A stretch of DNA of 64,000 bases, from assembly GCA_035547315.1 (NCBI GenBank), contig DASZVH010000004.1, positions 12,107-76,106 of the forward strand. Reading direction: 5' to 3'. Each line of letters begins with the position of its first letter. Position 1 is the first letter of the stretch. This stretch comes from Minisyncoccota bacterium (GTDB taxonomy: Bacteria; Patescibacteriota; Minisyncoccia; Phycocordibacterales; Phycocordibacteraceae). Below are positions 711-62,240 of the stretch, one piece after another. The position numbers and the translations under genes are program-made. The notes under the pieces were generated by a model, which was given only the letters and a program-made list of their open reading frames with translations, was not told where the DNA came from and did not search any database.

Positions 711-711
711 T

Positions 712-8991: not shown

Positions 8992-9007
8992 GATACATAC
9001 CGCAATA

Positions 9008-9037: not shown

Positions 9038-9048
9038 ATACTGCCCGC

Positions 9049-9210: not shown

Positions 9211-9230
9211 CGGTTTGCTAAGATTGCCGG

Positions 9231-40746: not shown

Positions 40747-41079
40747 ATGAACATCGGGCAGCAGCACATCCATGCGAGGCGGCGACTCTTCAAACATCTT
40801 GAGCCGTTCCCCTCCAAGCACTTTGGCAAGCGCATCCTCGACTACGTTATCTATGTTGCTGCGATCGCGCAGCCTCTTGCGCTTGTCCCGCAAGCGCTCC
40901 TGGTGCTTGACGACGGCAGCGCCTCGGGCGCCTCTCCGCTTACCTGGGGCCTTCTTGGCATTATCGGCATCATGTGGGTCTTCTACGGCATCGTGCATAA
41001 AGAGAAGCCGATTGTCCTCTCCAACACGCTCTCGGTTGTGCTCGACTTCACGATCGTCTACGGAATCCTCCGCCACTAG
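40747..41079 (+). CDS. SemiSWEET / PQ-loop sugar transporter family protein
   Basis: AIAQPLALVPQALLV (PQ motif) and WVFYGIVHKEKPIVLSNTLSVVLDFTIVYGIL match the three-TM SemiSWEET pattern. An N-terminal extension is possible. Confidence 0.55.
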   Translation: MNIGQQHIHARRRLFKHLEPFPSKHFGKRILDYVIYVAAIAQPLALVPQALLVLDDGSASGASPLTWGLLGIIGIMWVFYGIVHKEKPIVLSNTLSVVLDFTIVYGILRH

Positions 41080-45045: not shown

Positions 45046-45046
45046 T

Positions 45047-46702: not shown

Positions 46703-46741
46703 TTCATTTCTTCTTCGAGCGTCTGCTATAGTATCCGCACT

Positions 46742-47548
46742 GTGGCGAATATGATCGAGGTGGGGAAGCTCGAGAAGAGCTTCGGCGAGTTTAAAGCCGT
46801 CAAAGGCATCTCTTTCTCGGTGCCGGAGGGCGGGATCTTCGCCTTCCTCGGCCCCAACGGCGCGGGCAAATCGACCACGATCAAGATGCTCACGACCCTG
46901 CTTCACCCCACGGGCGGCTCGATTAAGATCAACGGACACGATCCGGTCAAAGATGCCGACGCCGTGCGCCACTCCTTCGGCATCGTCTTCCAGGACCCAT
47001 CGCTCGACGACGACCTCACCGCCTTCGAGAACATGGAGTTCCATGGCATCCTCTACGGCTTGCCGCGCGAGCTGCGCAGAAAGCGGATCGCCGAGCTGCT
47101 CGCGTTCGTCGAGCTTGAAGGGCGCAAGAATAATTACGTGCGCGAGTTCTCGGGCGGCATGAAGCGCCGGCTCGAGATCGCACGCGGGCTCCTGCACCAC
47201 CCCAAGATCATCTTCCTCGACGAGCCGACCTTGGGGCTCGACCCGCAGACGCGCAATCACCTCTGGGAGTATTTGAAGAAGCTCAATAAAGACGAGGGGA
47301 TCACTGTCTTCTTTACCACGCACTACATGGACGAGGCTGACAGGATCGCCGAGCGTATCGCTATTATCGATCACGGCGCTATCATCGCGGAGGGCTCTGG
47401 CGCGGAGCTCAAAGCGGAGACCGGGAAAGCGACCCTCGAAGAGGCTTTCCTTGCGCTTACGGGCCACAAAATCCGCGAGGAGGAGGCGGGCGCGGTTGAT
47501 CAGCTGCGGCAGATGGGCCGGATCTGGGGCGGAGGTAACCGCCGATAA
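46742..47548 (+). CDS. ABC transporter ATP-binding protein (ABC-2/DrrA-like)
   Basis: Walker A GPNGAGKST, signature FSGGMKRR and Walker B. Alternative ATG at 46751. A TATAGT hexamer lies upstream. Confidence 0.8.
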   Translation: MANMIEVGKLEKSFGEFKAVKGISFSVPEGGIFAFLGPNGAGKSTTIKMLTTLLHPTGGSIKINGHDPVKDADAVRHSFGIVFQDPSLDDDLTAFENMEFHGILYGLPRELRRKRIAELLAFVELEGRKNNYVREFSGGMKRRLEIARGLLHHPKIIFLDEPTLGLDPQTRNHLWEYLKKLNKDEGITVFFTTHYMDEADRIAERIAIIDHGAIIAEGSGAELKAETGKATLEEAFLALTGHKIREEEAGAVDQLRQMGRIWGGGNRR

Positions 47549-47555
47549 CATTTCT

Positions 47556-48302: not shown

Positions 48303-49057
48303 CCGAGCTTCTTCAACTCCTCGGTGAGCAGGTCTACGTATCTATAGAAATCGGGCGCGCGTGGGTCGCGCGGGCGGGGGAGCTCTATCGTGATCGTCTT
48401 CTTGACCTCGCCCGGATGCGCACTCATGAGCACGACCTCGTCTGAGAGCTCGACCGAATCCGGGATCAGATGATTGACCATCAAAATCGTCATGCCGTAT
48501 TGCCGCCAGAGCTTCAGGAGGTCGTGCTTCAAGTCCTCGGCGGTAATCGTGTCGAGATTGGAGAACGGCTCGTCGAGGATGAGGAGGTCGGGCTCTATCG
48601 CCAAGGCGCGCGCGAGCCCGACGCGCTGCTTCTGCCCGCCCGAGAGCTCGGCGGGGTAGTGATGCTCCAGATGCGCGAGGCCGACCTCCGCGAGCTTCTC
48701 GCGCGCCTTCTTGAGCCGTGCGGCCCGCTCCACCCCGCTCATCTTGAGGCCGAAGGCGACGTTCTCGAGCGCGGTCGCCCAGGGGAAGAGCGCGTAGTTC
48801 TGGAAGACCATGCCGGGGCGAGAGAAGTTGCGCACGATATGCCCGCCGCGCGCGCGCATAAAGCCGAGCAACACGCGCAGCAGCGTCGACTTGCCCGCGC
48901 CCGAGGGGCCCGAGAGCGAGACGAAGGAACCCTTCGCTGCGCTCAGGGTGATATCGCGCAGCGCGAGCACGCTCTTATCGCGCTCGTCGTCGAAGCGCGC
49001 GGAGACGCGCGAGAGGGCGAAGGCGGTCGTAGCGTCGGCGCTCATATCACTCTGCAT
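48299..49057 (-). CDS. ABC transporter ATP-binding protein (NitT/TauT family)
   Basis: Walker A GPSGAGKST, signature LSGGQKQR and Walker B ILDEP. Start re-placed at ATG 49057 or 49045. Overlaps the permease stop. Confidence 0.8.
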   Translation of the reverse strand: MQSDMSADATTAFALSRVSARFDDERDKSVLALRDITLSAAKGSFVSLSGPSGAGKSTLLRVLLGFMRARGGHIVRNFSRPGMVFQNYALFPWATALENVAFGLKMSGVERAARLKKAREKLAEVGLAHLEHHYPAELSGGQKQRVGLARALAIEPDLLILDEPFSNLDTITAEDLKHDLLKLWRQYGMTILMVNHLIPDSVELSDEVVLMSAHPGEVKKTITIELPRPRDPRAPDFYRYVDLLTEELKKLG

Positions 49058-49796
49058 AATGCCTCGCGCTGTCGGAGAGCAGGGGCGCCCAGAGCAGGCG
49101 ATTGGCGGCGAAGACGACCGCGAGGATGCCGAGGATCCCCGCAAAGAGCGCGGGCGTCACCCCCACCGAGCCCGCGGCATTGATGAAGCCGCCGATGCCG
49201 CCGACGCCCCCGATGATCTCGGCGCCGATCACGCTCTCCCAGCCTATCGCGAGCCCGACCACCGAGCCGGTGATGATGGCGGGGAAGGAGAGCGGCGCGA
49301 GATAGCTGCCGATGCGGCGCCAGCCGCGCGCGCCGAAAATGGTCGCCGCGTCGTTGAGATCCTCATGCGCGCTCTTGATCGCGGTCAGGACGGCGAAGAG
49401 GATCGGCCACATCACGCCGGTCGCGGTGAAGAGGATGATCATGAAGTCGCTGTAGCCCCAGAAGTAGACGAAGATCGGCAGAACCGCGAAGGAGGGGACA
49501 TTCTGCAGCAGGTCGAAGAGGGGGAAGAGGCCGGAGGCGAGCTTGGTCCAGCCAATCCCAAGCGCGATGCCCGCGCCGAGCGCGAGGCCGATCACATAGC
49601 CGCCCGCAAGCCGGTACGTGCTTTGCCAGAGCCCGAGCGCGAGCGCCTGCCAGGCCACGCCGGCGAAGTAGCCGGCCGCGCCGAGGATAAGGGCGAGCGC
49701 GAGGAGCGTCAGGAGCAGGAGGGCGGAGTGCTTGGCGCGCCGCCGGTGCGCGTGGTGCCAGGCTCTCGTTGGGGTGTGGCCGACGCTGCGAATCAT
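49047..49796 (-). CDS. ABC transporter permease (BPD_transp_1, SsuC/TauC-like)
   Basis: Polytopic. A TATACT hexamer on the minus strand lies 11 nt upstream of the ATG. Confidence 0.75.
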   Translation of the reverse strand: MIRSVGHTPTRAWHHAHRRRAKHSALLLLTLLALALILGAAGYFAGVAWQALALGLWQSTYRLAGGYVIGLALGAGIALGIGWTKLASGLFPLFDLLQNVPSFAVLPIFVYFWGYSDFMIILFTATGVMWPILFAVLTAIKSAHEDLNDAATIFGARGWRRIGSYLAPLSFPAIITGSVVGLAIGWESVIGAEIIGGVGGIGGFINAAGSVGVTPALFAGILGILAVVFAANRLLWAPLLSDSARHYAE

Positions 49797-49846
49797 GCTG
49801 TTTTATAGTATAGTGCACCCGCGCCACGCTCCTGCGTGGCGCACCT

Positions 49847-49920
49847 TGCCGGGTCGTCTAATGGTAGGACAACAGACTCTGGATCTGTTTATCTTGGTTC
49901 GAGTCCAAGCCCGGCAGCCA
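49847..49920 (+). tRNA. tRNA-Gln (CTG) with encoded CCA
   Basis: Acceptor TGCCGGG/CCCGGCA, anticodon loop CTCTGGA, T-loop TTCGAGT. Preceded by a 9 bp perfect palindrome (GCGCCACGC/GCGTGGCGC). Confidence 0.85.
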
Positions 49921-49994
49921 ATCAGGACATCGTACGGATGACCTAGAGGGGTCAATTCCTTTACTAAACCTTCTGGACATGTTTGCATTTAGCT

Positions 49995-51047
49995 ATGAAG
50001 GAGAAATCTCTGCCTAAACCGAATACGCAGGCCCTAAGTTGGTTTTATGGTGAGAGCAAGAAAGGGAATCTTATACTTGATCCCAAGTACCAAAGGAATC
50101 CGATTTGGTCCATTGGCCAGAAGTGTTTTCTGATAGATAGCTTGATTTCCGGGTCGCCCATTCCACAGGTCTTTATTAACATTAAAACAAAGACTGTTAG
50201 TAAAGTCCGACAAACCGACTATGAAGTAGTTGATGGACAACAACGGCTGCGCGCGATTTTGGAGTTCATGGAAGATCAGTACCCTTTAATCAAAACAACT
50301 GCCAAGTCCTACCCCGTTTCCGGCATCTATGCGCCACACATTGGCAAAAAATATTCCGAGTTACCCTCCGAATTACAGGATGCGATTTGGAACTATCCTC
50401 TTGCTGTTCAAGAGTTACGAGATTGGACGGATGTCGAAATAAGAGCCCTTTTTAGACGGCTCAATTATGTTGTAGAAAAATTGAACAAACAGGAATTACG
50501 CCACTCTCAGTACTTTGGTGAATTTGTTATTGCGGCAGAAGAGTTAAGCAAGGATCCTTTTTGGGATGAAATTGATTTCTTTTCCCGCCATGATTCGCAA
50601 CGAATGAAAGACGTGGAATTTGTTAGCGAGCTGCTCGTCCTTCTCATGGATGGCCCCCAAGAAGGGCAGTCTACTCTGGATAGATTTTATGCTGATTACG
50701 ATGTTCTTTTTCCGAAGAAAAAGAATTATCTGTCAAAATTTCATCAAACCCTCCGCTCCTTAAAATCAATAGAGACGTACCTGGCCAGCAGTCGCTTTGT
50801 AAAGAAAGCGGACTTTTACGCTCTATTTGGGGCTGTGTCGAGTTTAAATGAGCTTGTCAAACAAGCAGTCAACCTTTCTTACGCTGAGAACGAGCTAAGC
50901 AAATTTGAAAATCAACTTTCAAAATCTCCCGAAAGTCTGACGGGAAAAGTATTGAAATATTACAATACTGTCATCGAAGGTCCTGCAAAGAAAGCTAAAC
51001 GGGAAGAGCGCATCAAAATACTTTCAGGCTTGGTAGCTAAAGATTGA
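49995..51047 (+). CDS. DUF262 (ParB-like nuclease domain, DGQQR motif) protein
   Basis: YQRNPIWS...VVDGQQRLRAI signature of the DUF262/GmrSD N-terminal domain. ATG at 49995 (the track starts at TTG 49983). Confidence 0.75.
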   Translation: MKEKSLPKPNTQALSWFYGESKKGNLILDPKYQRNPIWSIGQKCFLIDSLISGSPIPQVFINIKTKTVSKVRQTDYEVVDGQQRLRAILEFMEDQYPLIKTTAKSYPVSGIYAPHIGKKYSELPSELQDAIWNYPLAVQELRDWTDVEIRALFRRLNYVVEKLNKQELRHSQYFGEFVIAAEELSKDPFWDEIDFFSRHDSQRMKDVEFVSELLVLLMDGPQEGQSTLDRFYADYDVLFPKKKNYLSKFHQTLRSLKSIETYLASSRFVKKADFYALFGAVSSLNELVKQAVNLSYAENELSKFENQLSKSPESLTGKVLKYYNTVIEGPAKKAKREERIKILSGLVAKD

Positions 51048-51742
51048 AATGGATGGCAACTACTACGGCAAAAAAAGTTGTCAACAAATTTACCAGCCGG
51101 CTCACTAAGGTTGGAGGATACTACGGCGAGCTGATATTAGCCGTTAACTTAAAGAGGCATCAGGCAGCTTTAGAGACTATGTTGGCTGAACAGTTCGTAT
51201 TCAATATTGTGGTGTTTTGGGAGGTGTTTCTTAACGAACTTCTGCTCACTTATCTTGTTGCGTCTCCAAAAAGGTTTCTTTCCAATCTCAAAGACAGGAT
51301 GGGCCAGTCTGTAAAAGAGCGATATGGAGGCGGGGCTGCCCAAATGCTCAAATTTAATTCTCCTAGATCAATCTCACTGGCAAAGGCCGCTGCACTTGCT
51401 GACCCAAAAGATTTTAATCTAACCGCAGAGTCTGCTGATCAGCTTACGAAACGAGCCAATGACTTGCTCGAAGCGAAATTCGCTAAACCCTTTACCCTAG
51501 ATCCCGATGATGCTCAATTTTTGGATTATTTGGTTTGTCTTAGAAATTTTCTTGCACACAGAAGTACATCTTCTAGAAATAAATTGAGAATAGCAGTGTC
51601 TGCACTCCAAAATTCGAACAACGATCTGAACGGCTCCATTTCAAACATAGGAACTTATCTGAAGACCACTAACACGTCAAACAAGACCCGAGCCTTGATA
51701 ATTTCAGAGCGTATGGTCCAAATAGCAAATAAGCTGGTTTAA
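51044..51742 (+). CDS. HEPN-like protein (RNxxAH motif)
   Basis: LVCLRNFLAHRS fits the Rx4-6H HEPN motif. ATGA overlap with the DUF262 gene. Confidence 0.45.
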   Translation: MKWMATTTAKKVVNKFTSRLTKVGGYYGELILAVNLKRHQAALETMLAEQFVFNIVVFWEVFLNELLLTYLVASPKRFLSNLKDRMGQSVKERYGGGAAQMLKFNSPRSISLAKAAALADPKDFNLTAESADQLTKRANDLLEAKFAKPFTLDPDDAQFLDYLVCLRNFLAHRSTSSRNKLRIAVSALQNSNNDLNGSISNIGTYLKTTNTSNKTRALIISERMVQIANKLV

Positions 51743-53079
51743 GAGTCCAGTATGACTTTTTTGTTTATGAGTGTAAGCCGGCTTCTAAATGACTGCATTA
51801 ACTCTCGCTTCTCCTCCAGTGAACCCTCCTTAAGAAGGTACTTCGCATAAGATCGTAAATCTGTTTTGCTCTGAGCATCGATTTGGTCTGCGCCGATGCC
51901 GAGCACTTTATTGCGGAAGTGATTGAAGCGCCCCATTTCTTTCTCAAGCTTCTGTTTAATGCCGAGAGTATTGAGATCCAACTTATCCACGATCTCTAAA
52001 AGCTGAGCAATCAACTCTTCTTCCCGTAGGTATGTGTTCTTGCAATTCTTGTCATAGAACCTCGTGCAGCCGTAGTAGATATACTTTGCTGTAGTCCCAT
52101 CCGCCAGACCCTTGAACTTCTCTTCAGCTGTTACACCGGAATTGCACAATCCGCATTTCATCAAGCGTGTGAAGGCGAATTCTTTGTACATCTGGCCATG
52201 TGGTTTGTGCGAGTCCAATTTTTCCTGAACCTTCTTGTAAAGTTCTTGGCTGATCAAAGGCTCGTGCCGGCCCACGTACCACTTGCCACTTTTCTTTGGG
52301 TACTCAATGAGACCACAGTAGAACGGGTTACGTAAGACCGTATGGATATTGCTCAACGAGAAGGGCTTCCCATTTCGAGTTTGAAACTTCACCTCGTCCT
52401 TTAACCACCGAAAGAGGCGTCTGCCACTCCACTTTTCGTAGGCAACCTTTTCGAACATCAATCGGATAATGTGAGCCCGCTGCGGATCGAGAACAACGTG
52501 GCATTTCATTGTTCGATCCGGATGGTTGATATAGCCAGTGGGCGCTACGCTCGGCCATAGGCCCATTTCGATGCGGGTGCGGAGACCGCGCTTCACGTTC
52601 ATGCTCTTGTTGTCGTTCTCGAGCTTCGCTTGCGAGCACAGGATCATCAGCAAGAATTTCTCACTGGGATTGTTTGTAAATTTCTGGCCGTATGTCCTCA
52701 CCTCAACTAGTTTTTTCTGGTCCATCAAGTCAACGATCGAGCCAAGATCGCCGGCGTTTCTTGAAAGGCGATCCGGATGCCATGCGAGTATGGCGTTGAA
52801 CTTGCCCTCCTTCAGTTCACGGATAAGCTCATTAAAAACTGGTCGTTGGGCAGTGTCCTTGGCCGAGTGAGATTCGCGCTTTATTTCGCTCACAGTCAAC
52901 CCGTCTCTCTGGGCGAGAGTCAGCATCTCTTTTATTTGGGAGTCTATCGAGAGTGCCTGCTTTTCGTCGGATTCGGTCGATTTTCGTGCATACAGGCAGT
53001 ATTTAAGGGGAACGACCTCTACAGGCGCTTGGGCGCCCGTTTGGCCTGCGTATAGTCCCACTTCCGGCATACAGCACAC
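51739..53079 (-). CDS. large serine recombinase (resolvase N-domain + recombinase domain + Zn ribbon)
   Basis: YARKSTESDEKQALSIDSQ catalytic region, DRLSRN motif and a C-terminal CGLCNSG...YYGC...C zinc ribbon. Exact start uncertain. Confidence 0.85.
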   Translation of the reverse strand: MCCMPEVGLYAGQTGAQAPVEVVPLKYCLYARKSTESDEKQALSIDSQIKEMLTLAQRDGLTVSEIKRESHSAKDTAQRPVFNELIRELKEGKFNAILAWHPDRLSRNAGDLGSIVDLMDQKKLVEVRTYGQKFTNNPSEKFLLMILCSQAKLENDNKSMNVKRGLRTRIEMGLWPSVAPTGYINHPDRTMKCHVVLDPQRAHIIRLMFEKVAYEKWSGRRLFRWLKDEVKFQTRNGKPFSLSNIHTVLRNPFYCGLIEYPKKSGKWYVGRHEPLISQELYKKVQEKLDSHKPHGQMYKEFAFTRLMKCGLCNSGVTAEEKFKGLADGTTAKYIYYGCTRFYDKNCKNTYLREEELIAQLLEIVDKLDLNTLGIKQKLEKEMGRFNHFRNKVLGIGADQIDAQSKTDLRSYAKYLLKEGSLEEKRELMQSFRSRLTLINKKVILDS

Positions 53080-53185
53080 ATACAGCCCGGAAGCCGTTCA
53101 GAAGTCTAGTGCCCTGAAAGGGGATAACTACACCCCACTTATCTCGCAATAGCCATAGAGACCGATTTGCGATAGTCTTGGATTA

Positions 53186-54049
53186 ATGCCTAAGAAGAAA
53201 AGGACTAGGAGACTGCGTGGAAGTGATTTCTTGATGAGATGGTCTCAGGGAGCATGGAGCGAGGACCAACTCGTGGATGCAGTAAACGCGACCCAAAAGT
53301 TTTTTGCGTTGCCGTATGGTCCTAGCGGTACAGCGCCAGACGATGATCCGGTGGCCTATGAGAAATACTTTGAAAGATTAGACGCAGCCGGTCTTGGTTC
53401 GATCAAGCGACCAGACCTCCTTATTTTCCCGGAGTCGGCTCGCAGCAAGGTTAATAGTATGGTTGAGCCTCTTGGTGGTGTCGCGGAACTGCCTTTTCAC
53501 ACGGAAGATGAGGAGCACATAAAAGCACTCCTTTCTTTGGCAATCATGGCAGTCGAATGCGAGAACAGCTTATGGAAGGCGAAACAGATGCCGAACTACA
53601 CCTACACCCTCAAGCCACAGAAGAGGCTTGGAGGTAAGCCCGGTTTAGCTAAAAATGCAGTGCTTCCTACGATCATCATGAAAGACGAGGATAGAGGCCC
53701 GCTCACAGAATGGCAAAAACGAAATCCGAAACTCCCGCTCCATATTTGGCATGCGTTTTTTGACGAAGCATACGGCATTTCGTTTGCCGATATGAATCGG
53801 CTTATTGACGATGGGACCATCGAGCCTTCTGTTCAAGAGTTTTCAAACGCAGGACAGCCCTCGACAAAGAAAACTCTATACAAAGCGCATTATTACCTTG
53901 GCTATCCGCTCGCGACCTCAACGCAGGACCCGGCGCTAAAAGCTCAAACTATAGTGGATAAGAATGGCCACATTTACCCTTACGTTACCTTCTCTGGAGG
54001 CAAGATGGCTCTCCGGGATGATGCTGTGAGGGTTTTGGAGAGTCTGTAG
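53186..54049 (+). CDS. hypothetical protein, candidate restriction endonuclease
   Basis: 287 aa with no family match. Lies 20 nt upstream of, and co-oriented with, the methyltransferase. Contains PD...E.K-like residues (RPDLLIFPE...ECENSLWKAK). Confidence 0.3.
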   Translation: MPKKKRTRRLRGSDFLMRWSQGAWSEDQLVDAVNATQKFFALPYGPSGTAPDDDPVAYEKYFERLDAAGLGSIKRPDLLIFPESARSKVNSMVEPLGGVAELPFHTEDEEHIKALLSLAIMAVECENSLWKAKQMPNYTYTLKPQKRLGGKPGLAKNAVLPTIIMKDEDRGPLTEWQKRNPKLPLHIWHAFFDEAYGISFADMNRLIDDGTIEPSVQEFSNAGQPSTKKTLYKAHYYLGYPLATSTQDPALKAQTIVDKNGHIYPYVTFSGGKMALRDDAVRVLESL

Positions 54050-54069
54050 GAGGAAGGTAAAATAAAGGG

Positions 54070-55566
54070 GTGAAAACCCGAGAACAATTAAGAGAGAAGG
54101 GACAATTCTGGACGCCGAACTGGATAGCTCAGAGCATGGTTAGTTATGCTTTGGGGAATGGCTCGAATCAACTTTTTGATCCCGCTCATGGGCTTGGTGC
54201 GTTTTTTGTCGCAGCAAAGGAACTGAGCAAGAAGTTTAAAAGAAGAATAACCTTCTTTGGTACTGACATAGACTCTGATCTAGTGTCTGAAATTAAAGAA
54301 CAAGGGATTCTTGAAGCCAAGGATTTAAAGAATCTACGAGTTGCTGACTTTGTAGATATTGCTTCCCAAAAGAAATACAAGTCCATAGTCGTAAATCCTC
54401 CATATATCCGCCATCACCGCATTCCTCTTGAAAAGAAACTGGCTCTGAAGAGAATCGCTCTACAACATCTTGGTCGTGAATTAGATGGCAGAGCAGGCCT
54501 CCATGTGTACTTTTTAATACTAAGTCTACTTGCACTTGAAAAAGACGGAAGGTTATCTTTCATTGTTTCCTCTGATATATGCGAAGGGGTATTTGCGAAT
54601 CCACTTTGGCAGTGGATCGGAAAGAACTATCAAATAGAAGCAGTTCTGACTTTCAGTGGTAAAGCTAGTCCATTTCCGGGTGTAGATACAAACCCAATTA
54701 TTTTCTTCATTAGAAACGCAAAACCAAAAGCAGTTCTTTCGTGGGCTCGAGCGAATGGAATAAATCCCGAGTCTATCAATAAATGGGTTGATTCTGGTTT
54801 TAAAACATCTCTAGCGGATGGATCAGATTTATTAGTGTTTGAACGTTCACTGAATGAGGCGCTTACCACGGGCCTTTCTCGACTTCCACAGACCGAAGAA
54901 CACAAATTCACTCTAGGAGATTTTGTGTATGCGATGCGAGGCATTGCTACTGGGAATAATGAATTCTTTTTGCTGGATCAAGAGACCGTTGATAGATTCG
55001 GAATTCCTCAAACGTATTTAGTTCCAGCAATTGCTCGAACACGAGATGTCGCAGGAGATATGGTTGATGAGTCTACTTTTACAGCTATTGTCGAAAAAGG
55101 AAGACCACATTACCTACTTTATATTGATGCTGACAGCCTAGATGGCCTTCCAAAACCGATAAGAAATTATATTGCCCACGGAGAAGAACTTGGAGTACAC
55201 AAGACCGCACTAATCTCTGCCCGAAGGGTCTGGTTCAAAATGGAAAAAAGAAATCCACCGCCGATCCTTTTTGCCTACTTAGGAAGGAGAAGTTCAAGAT
55301 TTATCGTCAACAAAGCCGGAGCGCTGCCTCTCAATGGTTTTCTCTGCATCTATCCTAAGGACACTGAAGCATCATACTTAAATAAACTAATACAGATAAT
55401 TAATCGCGAAGAGGTATTAAAGAACCTGTTCCTGGTCGGCAAATCATACGGATCCGATGCAGTAAAAGTAGAGCCTCGTGCGATAGAGCGATTGCCCATT
55501 CCGGAGAAGCTTCTCAAGGAAGTAGGACTTATACCCCCTAGGAAGGGTCAGCTAGCTTTAGTTTGA
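54070..55566 (+). CDS. N6-adenine DNA methyltransferase (gamma-class, Eco57I/TaqI-like) with C-terminal target-recognition domain
   Basis: GQFWTP N-terminus, motif I FDPAHGLGAFF and motif IV VVNPPY. 498 aa. Confidence 0.8.
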   Translation: MKTREQLREKGQFWTPNWIAQSMVSYALGNGSNQLFDPAHGLGAFFVAAKELSKKFKRRITFFGTDIDSDLVSEIKEQGILEAKDLKNLRVADFVDIASQKKYKSIVVNPPYIRHHRIPLEKKLALKRIALQHLGRELDGRAGLHVYFLILSLLALEKDGRLSFIVSSDICEGVFANPLWQWIGKNYQIEAVLTFSGKASPFPGVDTNPIIFFIRNAKPKAVLSWARANGINPESINKWVDSGFKTSLADGSDLLVFERSLNEALTTGLSRLPQTEEHKFTLGDFVYAMRGIATGNNEFFLLDQETVDRFGIPQTYLVPAIARTRDVAGDMVDESTFTAIVEKGRPHYLLYIDADSLDGLPKPIRNYIAHGEELGVHKTALISARRVWFKMEKRNPPPILFAYLGRRSSRFIVNKAGALPLNGFLCIYPKDTEASYLNKLIQIINREEVLKNLFLVGKSYGSDAVKVEPRAIERLPIPEKLLKEVGLIPPRKGQLALV

Positions 55567-55567
55567 T

Positions 55568-55822
55568 TTAGAGAAAATAGCCAACGCTTTTACTGTAGAG
55601 CTTTGCGAGTTTATTGAGCCAGATGGCCTCTACTCGCAATTCTCCAAGTTCGATTTTTGAAACCCAGGACTGGGAGCACCCGAGCTTTTCAGCCACCTCT
55701 GCCTGTGTCAGCCCGGCTTCTATCCGAGCTTTCTTTAGCCGCTTCACAAACCCAGCTCGTTCATCGGTATGAATAGATTTCTTCATACCTATAAGGCTGT
55801 ATTCCGTTATGGGATATTCCAA
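55568..55822 (-). CDS. XRE-family helix-turn-helix transcriptional regulator
   Basis: LTQAEVAEKLGCSQSWVSKIELGE Cro/C1-type HTH. Could be the controller of the adjacent restriction-modification genes or the island repressor. Confidence 0.7.
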   Translation of the reverse strand: MEYPITEYSLIGMKKSIHTDERAGFVKRLKKARIEAGLTQAEVAEKLGCSQSWVSKIELGELRVEAIWLNKLAKLYSKSVGYFL

Positions 55823-55937
55823 AGTGGAATATTTATGCTACGATAGGGCCACTTAGTCCATAAGGGGACAACCGACTACGAGGAAGTCCAGGACGAAGGT
55901 AAGTTATAGAAGTTTTATTTATAAGATAACGAAATAT

Positions 55938-56228
55938 ATGGCTCGTAAACCAAAGCCTCAGTGCCCAAATTGTAAGCAGTACAGGTTGGACGAAAAGCGT
56001 GGTATCTGGCTGCTACTCGCATCAGGGTGCTTTTTCGGTCCGCTCATGGTCGCCAGTGTCTTGTTTATTACAATCATCGGTATCCCGATTGCCTTGTTCT
56101 TTCTGGGTCTCTACATCATCACGATCCCACTCGGCATTATTGCTATAATCGTGGCGTTTCGTACTCACGGCTACCGGTGTAGAAATTGCCACTGGGTTGG
56201 CGATAACCCAATCATTGAATCGGCATGA
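55938..56228 (+). CDS. small membrane protein with split zinc ribbon (CPNC ... CRNC)
   Basis: 96 aa with two TM helices flanked by CxxC pairs. Confidence 0.4.
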   Translation: MARKPKPQCPNCKQYRLDEKRGIWLLLASGCFFGPLMVASVLFITIIGIPIALFFLGLYIITIPLGIIAIIVAFRTHGYRCRNCHWVGDNPIIESA

Positions 56229-56340
56229 GGCATGGCAATTCTGTCGTCACAAAGCGCTCGTGAGCTTCAAAGAATAATCAAAGAGGCTACGGAGCGCGAT
56301 GTGTCGCTCGGAGAAGCCTATGCGATTTGGGGATACCTAA

Positions 56341-57060
56341 TCAAACTCCTGCAGTTGTTGTGGAAGGTAGAACACCGCGATGAGGTACCCATACCGCCAC
56401 AACAGATGTCATTGTTTGGTCGGTTCGGAAACGCAAGTGCGGATCACAGGAGTCGTAAAAGATATTCTCGGAGTTAGGGATAGAGAATGCTTCTTTGGTT
56501 TTGCCTTCTCGATCCCATCGTTCTTTAAATTCAAGCAAGGTCTCTTCTGGGTCCGTGGGATGTTCGAGTTCGTGCATTTCTTTCAGCTCCCTATTTTCAT
56601 TCTTGACTTTAGCAAGCAGGTCAACGATATCTCTGAGGTGGAAAAGGCCCTCGGTTTGTTCCGGTTCAGGAAGATTGAGTACCAGAAAACGGATATCGTT
56701 CGGGTGAAGAAGGAGCCGAGGTTTCTCAACCTCCTGTTCTTTTGGAAAATTATGAAAATACTGCAGCCACAACTTCTGGCTTGCCGAATTACCTTGCACC
56801 GCACTACGCAAAATACTTTCAATTACGAAGCTGGTCTTTTCGAAAGCCCACTCTTTTCGTAAGGCTGTCACGCGAGACTGGAAGTCGGAGCGTTTTTTCC
56901 AGGCAGTTGGCGTGTTAATGCTGATTCCGTAGTATTCAGAAAATTGCTGCTGGGTTTCAATCCCGAGCCGGTGACGCTCGGAAGGGGGCATGGAGGTCCA
57001 GAGGATAAACTCCTCATAGACGCCATCTTTTTTCACACCTCGATTTTCACGGTTGTTCAT
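56341..57060 (-). CDS. hypothetical phage-like protein (N-terminal HTH, terminase-small-subunit-like)
   Basis: ETQQQFSEYYGISINTPTAWKKR resembles terS/Nu1-type HTH segments. 239 aa, low GC. Confidence 0.3.
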   Translation of the reverse strand: MNNRENRGVKKDGVYEEFILWTSMPPSERHRLGIETQQQFSEYYGISINTPTAWKKRSDFQSRVTALRKEWAFEKTSFVIESILRSAVQGNSASQKLWLQYFHNFPKEQEVEKPRLLLHPNDIRFLVLNLPEPEQTEGLFHLRDIVDLLAKVKNENRELKEMHELEHPTDPEETLLEFKERWDREGKTKEAFSIPNSENIFYDSCDPHLRFRTDQTMTSVVAVWVPHRGVLPSTTTAGV

Positions 57061-57169
57061 GGTTGTGATCTGCTTAATCCCTTGAGAATCGCTTGGGATT
57101 AAGCGGTATCTTCAATATTACTCCCGGAAATACCTGTTGTGAGGCCCTCTCTCTGTGGACCAACGAAAA

Positions 57170-57360
57170 CCCGACCTAGACGGGTCGAGATCTTGGTCGG
57201 ATAGGCGGTAGAATAGCCTTACGACACCTCACATTACTTCGCACCGAACCAAAGTAGCCAGCAGTCTAGAAAAGTATCGAAGGACCTATACGGGTCAATA
57301 AATAAGCCATCGCGAAAATTAGTTCGAGATTTCTAGACCCATACCCGTCTAGGAAATCGA
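57170..57360. repeat. iteron-like repeats: three copies of GACCTA(G/T)ACGGGTC (one inverted) plus three TCTAGA palindromes
   Basis: Approximate positions 57172-57189, 57283-57296 and 57336-57353. Lies in the 350 nt non-coding region of the island. Coordinates +/-2 nt. Confidence 0.5.
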
Positions 57361-57378
57361 ACTTCTAGAAAATGTGTA

Positions 57379-57409
57379 AAGGGCCGACCCGGTTGGATCG
57401 GCCCTTTGC
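57379..57409 (-). terminator. rho-independent terminator after the 57413-57760 gene
   Basis: AAGGGCCGAcccggttggaTCGGCCCTTT. On the minus strand a T-rich tract (tttacacatttt) follows. Confidence 0.6.
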
Positions 57410-57412
57410 GCG

Positions 57413-57760
57413 TCATGCGCTCGCCATCGCTTTCGGCACCATCGCGCCCAGCTCATCGGGACTCATGCCGAGTTCCTCGGCGAGCTTGAGCGCGTTGACG
57501 AGCATCTTGGTAGTCGCGATACGAAGGTTCTCTTCGTTCATCGCGCCGCCGTGATCCTGCGCCTCCGTCTCTGTCGCGATCTTGCCAGCCGACTTGCTGA
57601 TGTGCTTCAGGCTGTGCGAGACGGCGAAGGCACGAACCTTCTCCGGAGTGCTCAGATCGACGTTCGGATAGTGCTGATTCGTGAAGGTGTACCTCGCGCC
57701 GATGAAGGCCATCAGGGAAGCGAGATTCGGTTCAGGCGTTCCGGTCATAATGACCTCCAT
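57413..57760 (-). CDS. hypothetical protein (possibly MazG-like NTP pyrophosphohydrolase fold)
   Basis: 115 aa all-helical with an acidic ETEAQDHGG segment. Weak similarity only. Confidence 0.25.
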   Translation of the reverse strand: MEVIMTGTPEPNLASLMAFIGARYTFTNQHYPNVDLSTPEKVRAFAVSHSLKHISKSAGKIATETEAQDHGGAMNEENLRIATTKMLVNALKLAEELGMSPDELGAMVPKAMASA

Positions 57761-58174
57761 GGTTGAGGGTGAACTTTAGCCTGACACATTCATACCTCAA
57801 TTTGCCCGACCTGTCTAAGGCTAGAACTCTTCCACATAGAGAATCCTGATATTCTAAGCCCTGTTCGGGGTTATTCTGCTCGCGCTTGCGGCCGGCATAG
57901 GCTTTCTCTGGGGTGACAAGCATGCACTCGATAAACTCACTATCGTTGAGATAACGCCCGATCAAATGGTACAAGCCATGAGTGCTGATAACTTCTATGG
58001 TTTCTGGCGCGAGAGTACTTTAGTCGCGTCGGGGACCGTGGCCGGCATCTCCCAACAAAATGGCGAAACGCTTATCCAACTCACAACCGAGCCCGGAAAG
58101 TCGCTTTAGATGAGTAGCTGAACAAGTGAAAGCGCGGGGTCCTTCGCCGCGTATAATAAATACTAGCGGCCTTC

Positions 58175-58726
58175 ATGAAAAAAGCTCTCCTTTCTTTTGG
58201 ACTCATTCTCGTATCAGGGGCATACGCCCTCTATCATGCAATGGGTGGCGCGGCAACAAATCCCGCTGTCACAGTACCCCCCGTGACATCTTCGCAGGTT
58301 CAGCCCATAACTATTACCAATACTTCTTCGCCAGCCGCCCCTCCACCACAAAACGCTACAGAAACGCCGATTCAAACGACCCAGACGGCTACACCTCCGC
58401 CGTCGGCCCCCACTCCGCAACCGCTCTCGGTACCCAAAGGTCAATATGCTGATGGTACGTACACCGGCAGCCCCGCCGACGCGTACTACGGCACCGTCGA
58501 AGTGCAAGCCGTTGTCTCGGGCGGCAAGCTTGCCGATGTTACTTTCCTTCAATACCCGAGCGACCGGAGCACGAGCCGCTATATCAATAGCCAAGCGATG
58601 CCACTCCTTATGCAGGAAGCCATTGCCGCGCAAAGCGCGAACGTGAGCGGCGTCTCGGGCGCGAGTGATACGAGCGCAGCGTTCCGCGAATCGCTCGCGA
58701 GTGCACTCGCACAGGCAAAAAACTAA
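58175..58726 (+). CDS. secreted FMN-binding domain protein (flavinylation substrate)
   Basis: Signal peptide, a Pro/Thr-rich linker and a C-terminal FMN_bind-like domain. It has VSGVSGASDTS, resembling the [S/T]GA[S/T] flavinylation motif. Confidence 0.6.
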   Translation: MKKALLSFGLILVSGAYALYHAMGGAATNPAVTVPPVTSSQVQPITITNTSSPAAPPPQNATETPIQTTQTATPPPSAPTPQPLSVPKGQYADGTYTGSPADAYYGTVEVQAVVSGGKLADVTFLQYPSDRSTSRYINSQAMPLLMQEAIAAQSANVSGVSGASDTSAAFRESLASALAQAKN

Positions 58727-58727
58727 C

Positions 58728-59468
58728 ATGCGTATCGAACGAATTATCATGGGCATGCCAGCGGCGATCGAACTCGTTGGTGCCGATTCTCGAGAACCGC
58801 ACGACCGCATCTTCGCGTTATGGGACGCGATCGATGTACGATTTAGCACCTACAAGCCCGAGAGCGAGACGAGCCGCATCAACCGCGGCGAGATTAACGA
58901 ACGCGATTATAGTCCCGAGATGCAGGAGATTATTGCTCTTACCGAAAAGACAAAGCGGGAGACGAATGGATACTTCGATGCGCGCCCCCATGACGGTTCG
59001 TTCGATCCCTCTGGCGTTGTGAAAGGATGGGCGCTTCGCGAGGCAGCGCACCGCGCAGAGGAACTTGGCTTTGATTCCTTCTATGTCGAAATCGGCGGCG
59101 ACATTCAAACTCGCGGCAAGGATGCGGCAGGACGAGATTGGACAATTGGCATTCGCAACCCATTCAACTATGATGAGATCGTTAAGGTGCTCTGTCCGCG
59201 CGGCGCGGGCATCGCCACCTCGGGAAACGCTGCGCGTGGCGCGCATATCTACAATCCGCACGATTCGAAAGTCGCACCCGCAGAACTGGCAAGCATAACC
59301 GTCCTCGGTCCAGACATCTTCGAGGCCGATCGTTTCGCAACCGCGGCGTTCGCAATGGGTGAGAAGGGCATCTATTTTATTGAAAGCATGGACAGTTTCG
59401 AGGCGTACGCAATTGCCCCAAGTGGTGTTGCCACGATGACTTCCGGGCTCTTCCGTTATCTTGCATGA
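58728..59468 (+). CDS. apbE: FAD:protein FMN transferase ApbE
   Basis: ApbE-family signature along its length (GAIEL..., GGD, DSFEAYA...). 246 aa. Confidence 0.8.
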   Translation: MRIERIIMGMPAAIELVGADSREPHDRIFALWDAIDVRFSTYKPESETSRINRGEINERDYSPEMQEIIALTEKTKRETNGYFDARPHDGSFDPSGVVKGWALREAAHRAEELGFDSFYVEIGGDIQTRGKDAAGRDWTIGIRNPFNYDEIVKVLCPRGAGIATSGNAARGAHIYNPHDSKVAPAELASITVLGPDIFEADRFATAAFAMGEKGIYFIESMDSFEAYAIAPSGVATMTSGLFRYLA

Positions 59469-60949
59469 TTCGTTTCGTCGACGACATCTTGAATAAGATC
59501 ACGATGTACCGCTTGGTGCTCTACTACCTTGCGGCGCTCGCACTCCTCGCGTTCATACTTGGACTCTTCGGAATTGTCCCTGTCGATCCCACTGCGCTCG
59601 CGTTTTCAATACTCCTCGTGACGATCGTGTGTTTGGCGACGAACTGGGTCTTTGCGCGCGTTTTTTCTGCGGAAACCAACATCGAATCGGCATACATAAC
59701 AGCCCTCATCCTTGTTCTCATTGTGCCGCCGGCCACCGCGGGCAATGTGGCGGGTGTCGGCCTTCTCGTCTTCGTCTCGGTCTGGGCGATGGCATCCAAA
59801 TACATTTTTGCGATCGGCAAAAAGCACGTCTTCAATCCTGCAGCGATCGCGATCGCGATCGCTGCGCTCGCGCTCAACCAGCCCGCGACCTGGTGGGTGG
59901 GCGGCAATCTTTGGCTCGCGCCCGTCGTTATCCTCGGTGGCCTGCTTGTCGTGCGCAAGATTCAGCGCTTTGATCTCGTCCTCTCCTTTATGGCGGTCGC
60001 GATTGTTGCAACCCTTGCAACCGCCCCTTCCGCCGACTATGGGGGCCTGCTCTCGCAGACACTTCTGCATTCCTCATTCTTTTTCCTCGCGTTCGTGATG
60101 CTAACCGAGCCACTTACTACGCCGCCCAATCGCTTGCTCCGCATGGCATACGGCACATTAGTTGGGCTACTTTTTGCACCAAATATCCACCTCGGCTCCT
60201 TCTACCTTACGCCTGAGCTCGCGCTCCTCGCTGGCAACATTTTCTCCTACGCCGTGAGCCCGAAGGGCCGCTACACACTCACGTTGGTTCGGGTTGAGCA
60301 AGCCGCGCGCGATGCGTACGATTTCGTGTTTACCCCTGATCGTGCTTTTACCTTCAAGCCCGGTCAATACATGGAATGGACGCTTAGTCATAAATATCCG
60401 GACGACCGCGGTAATCGGCGGTATTTCACGCTCGCCTCCTCGCCGACTGCTTCTGAAGTCCGTCTCGGCGTGAAGTTCTACAACCCCTCGAGCACGTTTA
60501 AGCGTGCCCTTGCCGCACTCACCGAAAGCAAAACAATCTCTGTGTCGCACCTCGCGGGCGGTTTCGTGCTCCCGCGTAAGAAAGAGACCAAGCTTGTTTT
60601 CATCGCGGGTGGGATCGGCATAACGCCCTTTCGCAGCATGATCGAATACCTCCTCGACTCACGCGAACGGCGGGACATCGTGCTTCTCTATTCGAACAAA
60701 GCCGAAGCCGATATAGCCTACAAACCGCTTCTCGATCGCGCACGGGCAGAACTTGGTATCCGAACCGTTTATGTGACCGGTACACCAATCGACGCAGCAC
60801 TCATTGCCTGCGAAATACCCGACTACCGCAATCGCTCGTTCTATATCTCGGGACCGCATGGGATGGTGGAGACATTCAAGGCCGCGCTGCGTCGTATGGG
60901 CGTGTCGTGGTTTAGAATAAAGAGTGATTTCTTCCCGGGCTTCGCCTAA
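59465..60949 (+). CDS. membrane oxidoreductase: NqrB/RnfD-like polytopic N-domain fused to an FNR-like FAD/NAD(P)-binding domain
   Basis: KHVFNPAAIA (NqrB/RnfD HxFNPA motif). The C-terminal domain has RRYFTLASSP (RxYS FAD site) and LVFIAGGIGITPFRSM (NAD site). ATGA overlap with apbE. Confidence 0.6.
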   Translation: MIRFVDDILNKITMYRLVLYYLAALALLAFILGLFGIVPVDPTALAFSILLVTIVCLATNWVFARVFSAETNIESAYITALILVLIVPPATAGNVAGVGLLVFVSVWAMASKYIFAIGKKHVFNPAAIAIAIAALALNQPATWWVGGNLWLAPVVILGGLLVVRKIQRFDLVLSFMAVAIVATLATAPSADYGGLLSQTLLHSSFFFLAFVMLTEPLTTPPNRLLRMAYGTLVGLLFAPNIHLGSFYLTPELALLAGNIFSYAVSPKGRYTLTLVRVEQAARDAYDFVFTPDRAFTFKPGQYMEWTLSHKYPDDRGNRRYFTLASSPTASEVRLGVKFYNPSSTFKRALAALTESKTISVSHLAGGFVLPRKKETKLVFIAGGIGITPFRSMIEYLLDSRERRDIVLLYSNKAEADIAYKPLLDRARAELGIRTVYVTGTPIDAALIACEIPDYRNRSFYISGPHGMVETFKAALRRMGVSWFRIKSDFFPGFA

Positions 60950-60953
60950 TGCT

Positions 60954-61535
60954 ATGAGCACCTACGAAAAAGTCGCAACTGCCATCATTGTCATCCTCGT
61001 CGCTATCGGCGTTGCCTTCTCCTATCACGAAATTACCGAGCCGCATGAAAATAACGGCGGCCCAGACTTTGACCACAGCATCGGCCAGAATTTCGAAATC
61101 GGACCCTTCGACACCATCTTGAGCCGTCGATCCTCGGGCGGTATCGAACAGAATTGCGCGCCATTGCAGTCAGTGATCCTCGGAGCACTGCATGATGTAA
61201 AAGAAAAGCTCGAGGCCGCAGGCACGTATCAGCGAAGCGCGGATGTTTTCGAGGTCAATCAAGACACGTTGCAATTCTTCTGCAATGCGCAAGCAGAGGT
61301 GACACTCATTGATGACACTGGAACGAAACTCGTGCTTGATAAGCCGCCCTTTACGCGCGGCATTCCAGCGGGCGGTACAGCTACGGACGTAGGCACTGAG
61401 GTGCGTATCGACGCGACAATTGTGCGTCCCGGGACCGTACCACCAACCATGCCGACAGTTTCCGTTGAAGAACTCATTCCAGATCGGTATCTCGAAGGGG
61501 CAGTATCGTCGAGTACCGAAGTGATTGGGGAGTGA
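60954..61535 (+). CDS. hypothetical membrane-anchored protein
   Basis: One N-terminal TM helix and a ~170 aa extracytoplasmic domain. No motif recognised. Confidence 0.35.
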   Translation: MSTYEKVATAIIVILVAIGVAFSYHEITEPHENNGGPDFDHSIGQNFEIGPFDTILSRRSSGGIEQNCAPLQSVILGALHDVKEKLEAAGTYQRSADVFEVNQDTLQFFCNAQAEVTLIDDTGTKLVLDKPPFTRGIPAGGTATDVGTEVRIDATIVRPGTVPPTMPTVSVEELIPDRYLEGAVSSSTEVIGE

Positions 61536-61564
61536 TCGCATAGGAACGTCTTCGGGGCCCTCTC

Positions 61565-61800
61565 TGGACTCGAACCGACTTTCCAGAGAATTTAAGAATC
61601 CTCCTTGAGCGTCTAAGCTATAATTCCGACGAGGGTTCGATTCGTAGAAGGGCAGCCAAGTCGAGCGCAACACATGCGCACGAGTTCGTCAAGGGTCTCG
61701 TGCGCGAGAACCCCGCACGAGACGCATCGCGTTTTTAAGTAAAGAGAAAACCGCCGCATCGAGAGCGTGCCCAGCGGGCGGCTTCTCGTACGCGACGGTC
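61565..61800 (+). ncRNA. candidate structured ncRNA; the 5' end resembles the tmRNA tRNA-like domain
   Basis: GGGGCCCTCTCTGGACTCGAACCGAC compared with E. coli ssrA 5' GGGGCUGAUUCUGGAUUCGACGGG. A GAAGGGCAGCCAAG segment resembles the SRP-RNA GGAAGCAGCCAAGG motif. No complementary 3' acceptor strand was found, so the assignment is tentative. Confidence 0.2.
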
Positions 61801-62071
61801 AGTGTATTTGCTTGGGGCAGCCGATTGGCATGGACGCACCCTGGGCGTAGACGCGCAACCAGAGATTCGAAATGCCTTTCCCGCGCAATTGCGGGAGAAC
61901 GCTGTTCTCGATCGCCTCGTTGAGCTTGAGGAGAATGTCACGGCACTGTGCAATGCGCCGATTATCCTTGCCGGGGCCGGTGTCGATTTCGACCGCCAGC
62001 CAACCTGAGTTGACGTCGAGCGGGCCTTGATTGCGCACCCGCAACTCGACATCCCGAAATTGCACCTTCAG
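61799..62071 (-). CDS. hypothetical protein (possible GTG start); conflicts with the ncRNA hypothesis
   Basis: The minus-strand frame reads protein-like (VQFRDVELRVRNQGPLDVNSGWLAVEIDTGPGKDNRRIAQ...) with GC3 ~72%. An AGGTG lies upstream of an alternative frame. Confidence 0.2.
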   Translation of the reverse strand: MKVQFRDVELRVRNQGPLDVNSGWLAVEIDTGPGKDNRRIAQCRDILLKLNEAIENSVLPQLRGKGISNLWLRVYAQGASMPIGCPKQIH

Positions 62072-62240
62072 GGAATATCGGCGCGGGCATCGCGATCGGG
62101 GTAGCGATAGGCGTCGCACTCGACGCCGGCGTGGCAAGGCGCCAGTAGCCGTTCTGAGCAAGGCTTAGCCTTGCTCAGGAAGAGGTCGGAGAAGATGCCG
62201 GGAATCGGCGGTGAAGGGGAGGCGGCGCTATACTGATGGC

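Follow-up and report, generated by a model that had tools for sequence, protein, structure and literature searches.

A low-GC integrative element with a large serine recombinase at tRNA-Gln of a Patescibacteria genome, possibly of satellite type

Is the low-GC block that follows a tRNA-Gln gene in a Patescibacteria genome a mobile element and, if so, of which kind? The question was raised by a 64,000-nt stretch of a metagenome-assembled genome (MAG) of a Minisyncoccota bacterium (GenBank assembly GCA_035547315.1, contig DASZVH010000004.1, positions 12,107 to 76,106), hereafter the window, whose host is a bacterium of the Patescibacteria (candidate phyla radiation, CPR) with an unusually high guanine and cytosine (GC) content. 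A preliminary description made from the letters alone had placed an island resembling a phage-inducible chromosomal island (PICI) or satellite at 49921-58130, and had proposed that its composition, the same site in related genomes and profile matches of its open reading frames (ORFs) be looked at. We conclude that this DNA is, very probably, an integrative element which couples a large serine recombinase (LSR) to a tRNA target and belongs to a widespread, apparently undescribed family. The best explanation overall, which we favour with somewhat better than even confidence, is an element of ~7.3 kb (49921 to ~57260) integrated by its LSR at tRNA-Gln and moved by satellite-type transfer.

With regard to composition, GC fell from ~0.65 to ~0.43 directly after the 3' end of tRNA-Gln at 49920, in agreement with the sharp fall first described there. 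Intervals of 500 nt had a GC of 0.63–0.69 over 48500-49999 and of 0.41–0.48 over 49750-52249, and successive 200-nt intervals spanning 49600-50200 gave 0.73, 0.62, 0.51, 0.46 and 0.42, the whole drop taking ~300 nt. The break at the tRNA was similarly seen in tetranucleotide usage, with a correlation of r = -0.08 between 49921-57256 and the host, compared to a minimum of 0.87 among host segments of 2.8 kb. An independent Logan contig (L028, from SRR12170514) was 100% identical over window positions 48786-62926, and the junctions are therefore not specific to one assembly. Furthermore, two island proteins (VHC68_01105 and VHC68_01130) are on record at NCBI in a 'Candidatus Paceibacterota bacterium' MAG.

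The site was compared across 27 related loci, anchored on the ABC-transporter permease located 5' of the tRNA, with protein identities of at most 62%. Adjacency of the permease and tRNA-Gln was kept in ~15 of these 27 relatives, and the genes of 49983-57974 were not found at the permease/tRNA-Gln site in the set, with the exception of two distant recombinase homologues (35–36% identity) in a single locus, L012. Several relatives have a low-GC stretch of their own right after tRNA-Gln which carries other cargo, such as AAA_21 together with RloB (L006) or a DpnI-family enzyme (L009). On sequence comparison, the tRNA-Gln site is a variable hotspot throughout the lineage. The L012 locus (positions 1-9400, bin WY4.bin53) holds an unrelated element type at the same tRNA: a different large serine recombinase (35%) is encoded by an ORF (7874-9382) that overlaps the 3' end of tRNA-Gln, its neighbours are an HUH Rep-like ORF (7140-7877) and an XRE helix-turn-helix (HTH) ORF, and the locus contains a second serine recombinase (1539-3230) and a tyrosine-integrase-like ORF (289-1431).

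The genome is a MAG, in which such contigs can be chimeric, and the block might thus be explained without any mobile element, either as an assembly or binning chimera or as native, vertically inherited genes of odd composition. This explanation is effectively refuted by the identity of the independent assembly over both junctions, by the absence of the genes from the conserved site in relatives, and by the recurrence of the same recombinase, tRNA and arm sequence in related elements of other genomes.

The LSR itself is predicted to have a resolvase catalytic domain, with its Ser and Arg residues, followed by recombinase and zinc-ribbon domains (Pfam Resolvase PF00239, 2.1e-22; Recombinase PF07508, 6.8e-18; Zn_ribbon_recom PF13408, 1.1e-6). 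Its best PHROG match was the integrase family phrog_95 (4.9e-72), and the nearest solved structure was the SPbeta integrase (7e-14). In the family alignment, the catalytic and zinc-ribbon residues, namely YARKS, DRLSR and four Cys, were invariant. The Logan gene call of the recombinase (P0001, 395 aa) begins at Met52 and is without the catalytic Ser34; this start is an annotation artefact, and automated screens could miss the integrase.

The LSR family comprises more than 120 clusters at 60–80% identity, assigned to Patescibacteria wherever the source is named, and the nearest other LSR is 80% identical to that of the window. Six close members share a common layout, in which tRNA-Gln(CTG) is followed by a variable cassette, the recombinase pointing at the tRNA, and further variable cargo; the latter includes QatABCD, type I restriction with an OLD-like ATPase, AbiEii, Hypoth_Ymh, and a pair formed by an AAA protein and an S8 peptidase. 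The LSR is the sole protein common to the related elements, all of the cargo being different. The association with tRNA genes was counted in 87 Patescibacteria-type LSR loci, including 80 further metagenome loci. A tRNA was present beyond the LSR 3' end in 40 of them, and the first such tRNA lay on the opposite strand in every case (40/40, same strand 0). Within 3 kb, a tRNA was located downstream of the LSR at 21 of the 50 loci with enough sequence and upstream at none of 49, the distance from the LSR end to the tRNA being 111–222 nt in the shortest cases. In particular, the cluster to which the LSR of the window belongs (at least 62% identity) was paired with Gln(ctg) seven times and with Gln(ttg) once, and other clusters with Gln(ttg), Glu, Gly/Arg/Leu, Ser or Asn. 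These locus comparisons show tRNA identity following the LSR subclade, with the subclade of the window tied to tRNA-Gln(CTG). Literature searches found no published account of such a tRNA-targeting LSR element family in Patescibacteria.

At the tRNA junction, the distance from the T-loop GGTTCGA to its inverted partner TCGTAyC/G was exactly 27 nt in six elements, irrespective of whether CCA is encoded, the GGTTCGA-N27-TCGTAyC/G spacing of the window recurring in L031, L034, L036, L069 and L102. The resulting 41-bp pseudo-palindrome (Table 1) fits the form expected of a serine-integrase site, with a probable crossover at ~49915-49917. Directly after the tRNA, each LSR subclade has a distinct conserved sequence; the arm of the Gln(ctg) subclade, ACTCATAAAAATCGTACCCGTAGACCTAGACGGGTC, is nearly identical in L036, L069 and L102 and has diverged in the window. 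In the Gln(ctg) clade, the GACC-N6-GGTC junction motif was found behind the tRNA of every element examined but L041, and it was absent, with up to 2 mismatches allowed, beside tRNA-Gln in relatives without this recombinase family. Among the related elements, L036 has 19 nt of the tRNA 3' end repeated without mismatch at a distance of 6.9 kb, close to the border of its GC island. In L033, the conserved arm is fused to an 18-nt tRNA-like piece that lacks the tRNA 5' half, which makes a junction of the attP or tandem type. We propose that the recombinase would pair the site of the element with a ~41-bp pseudo-palindromic site running from the tRNA T-loop (GGTTCGA) to an inverted partner supplied by the element (TCGTAC), and that crossover would take place in the last bases of the acceptor stem, so that the tRNA would stay intact. 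The small integrative element at tRNA-Gln that the preliminary description had suspected is thus strongly supported by the intact LSR, the uniform tRNA orientation, the conserved junction arm and the absence of its genes in relatives.

Its right end is another matter. The boundary initially set at 58130 had to be abandoned, since the strongly foreign block ends at ~57260-57380 and inserted DNA runs on to 61659. The same applied to a 'repeat-rich origin-like' part: repeat analysis of the supposed origin-like DNA found no tandem or iteron repeats, and an origin or iteron reading was rejected, the repeats being three extra copies of the junction motif, with 57175-57185 and 57343-57353 forming an exact 11-nt inverted repeat. 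One of these copies scores as a terminator-like hairpin with a T run (57170-57189, minus strand), and a structural or termination role could add to or replace protein binding. The segment 57241-57296 has the form of the L033 junction and resembles the attR arm of L036, and GC steps up at 57250-57400. Based on this junction and this step, the LSR element was taken to end probably at ~57260, and at the latest at ~57375. It tells against this placement that the element-side arms of L033 and L036, when aligned locally to 55800-58300, scored below the shuffled null; the arm is not statistically detectable, and we therefore infer the inner right junction.

Beyond this point, the segment 57380-61633 has a GC of 0.556 and a correlation with the host of r = 0.83, just outside the host range, and its genes were absent from the site in 26 of the 27 relatives, with homologues in L026 only. 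In that locus (4395-7132), a homologue of the FMN_bind/ApbE/RnfD-like operon (~52% identity for ApbE and RnfD) lies within 3–6 kb of the ABC transporter in reversed relative orientation, and this membrane redox module may be mobile in the metabolically reduced Patescibacteria. That the operon is plain host DNA is possible, although disfavoured by its absence from 26/27 relatives and its location inside the boundary formed by a tRNA remnant. This remnant, 61634-61659, was the best downstream match to the tRNA 3' end, with 20/28 positions against a shuffled null maximum of 19; a long direct tRNA repeat as attR was rejected, given that only 20/28 was reached near 61633, barely over that null.

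The remnant gained meaning from the comparison with L004 and L008. The terminal unit that it closes (61559-61659) is 78% identical to L004 8878-8978, where the unit sits 850 nt beyond tRNA-Gln. To the left of GGCAGCCA, the window matches the terminal unit of L004, which diverges exactly there, and to the right it matches the sequence directly after the intact tRNA-Gln of L008; from these two matches it follows that the whole of 49921-61659 was inserted. The stretch 61660-61716 represents either the flank that lay downstream of the tRNA ancestrally or an arm left by an even earlier element, and it is similar to the arms found in the Gln(ttg) subclade. In L008 itself (5900-6073), the junction of '...CCCGCAGCCA' with 'AGTCGTGC' that follows tRNA-Gln occurs once more ~95 nt further downstream, which suggests stacked junction remnants. 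A tRNA-like fragment on the minus strand of the window (61553-61632), containing GGTTCGAGTCC and 78% conserved in L004, is possibly part of the element terminus; it was rejected as an RNA gene, with no ARAGORN or Rfam call and a fold no better than shuffles (z = -0.24). Altogether, an intact tRNA, an LSR 1.8 kb away facing it and a degenerate 3' remnant at 61634-61659 give the block the architecture of a tRNA-gene genomic island of the Islander type.

These data are probably best described by a two-layer structure, with a newer LSR element atop an older insertion at the same tRNA. New elements would insert at the tRNA and displace older ones outward, and such an outward push of earlier insertions would explain the older, host-like 57380-61633 as well as the remnant 61634-61659. 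The other way to read the same stretch is as a single 11.7-kb element (49921-61659), with the remnant as its distal arm, FMN_bind/ApbE/RnfD as metabolic cargo and the motif copies at 57173-57353 as internal regulatory sites. In line with a single element, 61634-61659 is the best tRNA 3' match downstream (20/28) and lies at the start of the L008 flank similarity, and the distal arm of L036 is likewise tRNA-like. We nonetheless consider it unlikely, as the two halves differ in composition (GC 0.455 for the LSR module vs 0.556 for the outer segment, with a tetranucleotide r of 0.07 between them), 57241-57296 looks like a tandem junction as in L033, the DNA beyond 61659 is similar to an arm from another subclade, and in L004 the same terminal unit closes an insert of just 850 nt.

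Table 1. Features at the tRNA-Gln locus, in window coordinates.
Feature	Position	Strand	Evidence or remark
Intact tRNA-Gln(CTG), integration target (attB side of attL)	49847-49920	+	ARAGORN; Rfam RF00005, 62.2 bits
Proposed attL core, 41-bp pseudo-palindrome GGTTCGA-N27-TCGTACG	49896-49936	+	Centred on 'CAG' of the tRNA acceptor 3' end
Junction motif GACC-N6-GGTC (GACCTAGAGGGGTC)	49940-49953	+	Conserved just outside the att core
DUF262/GmrSD_N (ParB-like) protein, gene 1 of candidate defence pair	49983-51047	+	Pfam GmrSD_N 1.6e-19
HEPN-type protein, 232 aa (VHC68_01105), gene 2 of candidate pair	51044-51742	+	
Large serine recombinase (integrase)	51739-53079	-	Likely start ATG at 53070, 443 aa; 3' end faces the tRNA
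AccI-family type II restriction endonuclease	53186-54049	+	Pfam RE_AccI 1.1e-14; PADLOC REase_II 3.7e-14
Eco57I-family N6-adenine DNA methyltransferase, NPPY motif	54070-55566	+	Pfam Eco57I, M_Eco57I_C, N6_Mtase; PADLOC MTase_II 4e-52
XRE-family HTH regulator	55568-55822	-	Pfam HTH_31 1.4e-12, HTH_3 2e-10; PHROG transcriptional regulator/repressor families
Predicted membrane/zinc-ribbon ORF, 96 aa	55938-56228	+	ORF list; gene call also in the Logan assembly
Orphan small terminase (terS) homologue, 239 aa (VHC68_01130)	56341-57060	-	27-member family
Three extra junction-motif copies	57173-57186, 57283-57296, 57342-57353	+, +, -	Within 57173-57353
Proposed distal junction of the LSR element	57241-57296	+	tRNA-like arm GCACCGAACCAAAGTAGCCAGCAG fused with TCTAGAAAAGTATCGAAGGACCTATACGGGTC, a degenerate version of the arm next to the tRNA
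Inserted segment, probably older and in part ameliorated	57380-61633		
ORFs of the older segment, unknown	57413-57760, 57732-57974, 60924-61535	-, -, +	
FMN_bind, ApbE and RnfD-like/NAD-binding ORFs of the older segment	58175-58726, 58665-59468, 59465-60949	+, +, +	Pfam
Conserved terminal unit	61559-61659	+	Ends in degenerate tRNA-Gln 3' remnant 61634-61659, GGTTCGATTCGTAGAAGGGCAGCCAA; outer end of the inserted DNA
L008-like flank	61660-61716	+	86% over 83 nt, ~55/58 in the core

Which cargo does the LSR element carry? By homology, it consists of an AccI-like restriction-modification pair, a candidate pair of DUF262 and HEPN proteins, an XRE regulator and an orphan small terminase gene (terS). 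Searches of the island ORFs against Pfam, PHROGs and PADLOC profiles mostly upheld the gene calls of the preliminary description, including the recombinase, the HTH repressor-like gene, the restriction-modification genes and the defence pair. The restriction endonuclease and methylase genes lie on one strand with 20 nt between them, as a predicted type II system of the AccI-like kind. The DUF262 protein also matched PADLOC NsnA (6e-36) and PD-T4-2_A (1e-23), and phrog_2598 (3.5e-41). With Pfam, it showed GmrSD_N (PF03235) alone, at residues 24-178, and no DUF1524 domain; a GmrSD type IV restriction enzyme was therefore rejected, the fused DUF1524 (HNH-like) nuclease domain being missing. Similarly, Menshen (NsnABC) and PD-T4-2 were rejected, as the A component matches and the adjacent 232-aa protein fits no PADLOC model. 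This second protein has the Rx4-6H motif within an all-helical bundle that characterizes HEPN-domain RNases, and its distant plasmid homologues adjoin other defence genes, a DUF262-HEPN adjacency not being confirmed among them. The XRE gene, divergent from the ORF at 55938, is in a repressor-like position and may have that role. The 96-aa ORF gave no significant family match in Pfam, PHROGs or PADLOC, and a weak NCBIfam match to the YccF domain (E = 0.0013) was far below the cut-off.

The remaining cargo gene bears on the manner of transfer. The ORF of 239 aa, which had been called 'terS-like', is by homology that of a phage-group small terminase, a call that the viral loci confirmed. Its family is conserved over the N-terminal ~150 residues with a variable tail, 17 of the 27 members match HTH_Tnp_1_2 (Pfam), and the protein of the window keeps every invariant residue. 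In L122, the homologue P0136 is directly upstream of terL (phrog_2, 1e-14), behind which lie genes for portal, protease, cement and capsid (Phage_cap_E) proteins, and in 13/13 viral loci with strong IMG/VR matches the homologue directly precedes terL, with portal next where the contig reaches. Position immediately upstream of terL and an N-terminal HTH are thus the features by which the family is assigned to small terminases (TerS). In a Foldseek search with the predicted model of the 239-aa protein, the top matches were all chains of 2ao9 (probability 0.99–1.0, with a modest E of 0.065), a phBC6A51 prophage protein which is treated in the literature as a putative small terminase ring. No terL, portal or capsid gene was found in the window, and none of those of that phage group in any of the 87 LSR loci. 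A role of the 239-aa protein as a conserved recombinase partner (excision factor) was rejected on account of its absence from all other LSR loci.

P0124, which is the closest among full-length homologues (47% identity, 89% coverage), is again an orphan, in a small island at a tmRNA gene (L120 1-8700 and L121 1-6000). This island has an unrelated serine recombinase, 26% identical to that of the window, whose gene runs into the tmRNA 3' end from the opposite strand, the same orientation as in the LSR family, and the cargo of the island includes, along with the orphan terS, a helicase-like protein of 815 aa and an N6_N4 methylase. A further observation concerns a viral contig (L037 5500-10000; IMG/VR UViG 3300001594_001499) in which an LSR family member (56%) is encoded immediately downstream of terL (phrog_38, 2.5e-78) and a ParB-methyltransferase fusion. 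This 18.9-kb contig has 17 ORFs of 100 aa or more, and a scan of seven of them revealed no capsid gene.

The presence of terS without terL, portal, capsid or replication genes makes a minimal phage satellite the most likely category, and satellite-type, phage-mediated transfer via the orphan terS may be the likeliest route, for which we would claim slightly less than even confidence. In such a scheme, a helper phage of the L122 type would infect or be induced, the element would excise, and the island TerS would direct the TerL of the helper to package island DNA, the defence cargo meanwhile guarding the host against other phages. The term 'PICI/satellite-like' in the preliminary description is accordingly upheld in one part, the predicted orphan terS without a full phage morphogenesis module (terL, portal, capsid) in the window, and falls in others. 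The PICI definition fails on the lack of a replication module, with neither a primase or replicase among the island ORFs nor iterons in its DNA, on a serine recombinase where a tyrosine integrase is expected, and on a size of ~7.3 kb instead of ~10–15 kb; the 'origin-like repeats' are att-related.

Several results weigh against transfer as a satellite or against the proposed site. Neither excised nor packaged copies of the element were seen, nor was there a near-identical strain with the site empty. The genome yielded no helper phage, a search of IMG/VR did not return the element, and no near-identical copy was found in another genome. No primase, helicase or rep gene was detected among the island ORFs with Pfam, PHROGs, PADLOC and NCBIfam. 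The terS of the window was absent from the other 86 LSR loci except for one weak match in L049, and the C-terminal ~50 residues of its product are unconserved relative to phage-borne homologues and modelled as disordered. In addition, the GACC-N6-GGTC motif might act as a small hairpin or as a terminator, in which case proteins would not bind there.

Some of this is shared with the main rival of the satellite, a cargo-only integrative defence island whose terS would be a passenger picked up from a phage by recombination, and which would be transferred by other routes (generalised transduction, transformation, vesicles). As well as the lack of a replication module and a terS tail unlike the phage versions, it agrees with the variable defence or metabolic cargo, without a packaging gene, of most LSR family members, and tRNA elements of a cargo-only kind are known from the tycheposon paper. 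We regard it as doubtful, since the terS ORF is intact and every family-invariant residue is kept, and since the closest full-length terS is again an orphan in a serine-recombinase island, which argues for selection on islands and against accidental carriage.

A decayed prophage, that is, the remnant of a temperate phage which kept only its integrase, repressor, terS and morons, is improbable. The terS family is indeed phage-borne, an LSR family member lies beside terL on the viral contig L037, and Paceibacteria prophages of ~44 kb have been reported (PMC12455944). However, the window holds no gene or fragment for terL, portal or capsid, nor do the 87 LSR loci contain those of that phage group, and no LSR of this family was seen in the available flanks of the terS-phage loci. 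Moreover, every ORF is intact, and the order of tRNA, cassette, LSR and cassette is common to many small islands whose GC edges are clean.

Returning to the element as a putative minimal satellite, its architecture was compared with that of known systems. In the tycheposon paper, a PICI-like subset of tycheposons is defined by a lone terS or capsid gene, an orphan island-borne terS is given as the defining packaging feature of SaPI-type PICIs and PICI-like tycheposons, and 27 of 937 elements have a large serine recombinase. The element of the window resembles the terS-only PICI-like tycheposons by analogy. Tycheposons are likewise small tRNA-adjacent elements that stack at the tRNA and vary in their cargo modules, each integrase clade going with particular tRNAs; unlike it, they are overwhelmingly tyrosine-recombinase elements of marine cyanobacteria, many of them with primase/helicase replication genes. 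The family described here is wholly of the serine-recombinase type, its host belongs to the Patescibacteria and no replication gene was found in the element; the resemblance is architectural only. With SaPI-type PICIs it shares the site-specific island, a repressor-like HTH, a terS of its own without terL or capsid, and anti-phage cargo, whereas PICIs have tyrosine integrases, a primase/replicase with an origin, usually 10–15 kb and a characteristic divergent regulatory layout. PICMIs, the minimalist satellites of Vibrio, are also very small, with few genes, helper-dependent and host-protecting; their core consists of a tyrosine integrase, AlpA and primase, they are integrated beside fis, and they have no terminase gene (PMC10803314). 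Neither this integrase-AlpA-primase core nor the fis site is found in the element of the window, and the PICMI was rejected as closest analogue on account of that core and its lack of a terminase.

The recombinase was in turn compared with characterised large serine integrases. With those of SPbeta (SprA), A118, TP901-1, Bxb1 and phiC31 it has in common the Resolvase, Recombinase and zinc-ribbon domains, the conserved catalytic residues, a short pseudo-palindromic att site and an integrase gene near one end of the element. The characterised enzymes target protein-coding genes or intergenic sites, unlike the clade of the window, which is specialised for tRNA 3' ends. A 2020 mapping study called the use of tRNA genes by serine integrases previously unreported and in need of proof, with 14/297 computational cases (Mageeney et al., PMC7192596).

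Two further observations were made elsewhere in the window. At 40000-40750, between tRNA-Met/Asp and tRNA-Thr/Thr, GC dips to 0.51–0.54, and this could be a small foreign insert. An ORF of 838 aa at 45035-47551 on the minus strand is the counterpart of two separate ORFs (~residues 1-272 and 287-837) in many relatives. These two are neighbours in some relatives and separated by several kb in others, and the single ORF seen here may be a fusion.

Serine integrases are preferred for genome engineering because their sites are short and they need no host factors. Patescibacteria genomes are tiny, and to our knowledge few defence systems and hardly any mobile elements have been described from them. 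If our interpretation is true, a natural clade in which subclades target specific tRNA 3' ends would offer ready-made landing sites in many genomes, as well as a system in which to study the reprogramming of site specificity. It appears that LSR elements are one of the chief means by which Patescibacteria acquire restriction, HEPN, Qat, Abi and similar systems, and the match of the orphan terS to a defined phage group predicts a helper-satellite pair, open to direct testing, in a phylum without cultured members. We tentatively suggest, as a possibility short of an even chance, that Patescibacteria hold a large undescribed element family in which every LSR subclade has its own tRNA or tmRNA whose 3' end it targets, a subset of the elements being minimal terS-only satellites that lack replication genes of their own. 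If so, these would be the first satellites reported for the ultra-small-celled Patescibacteria, stacking at tRNA genes and shuttling defence systems, and LSRs would take the role that tyrosine integrases play elsewhere, as short-site integrases aimed at universally conserved tRNA sequences.

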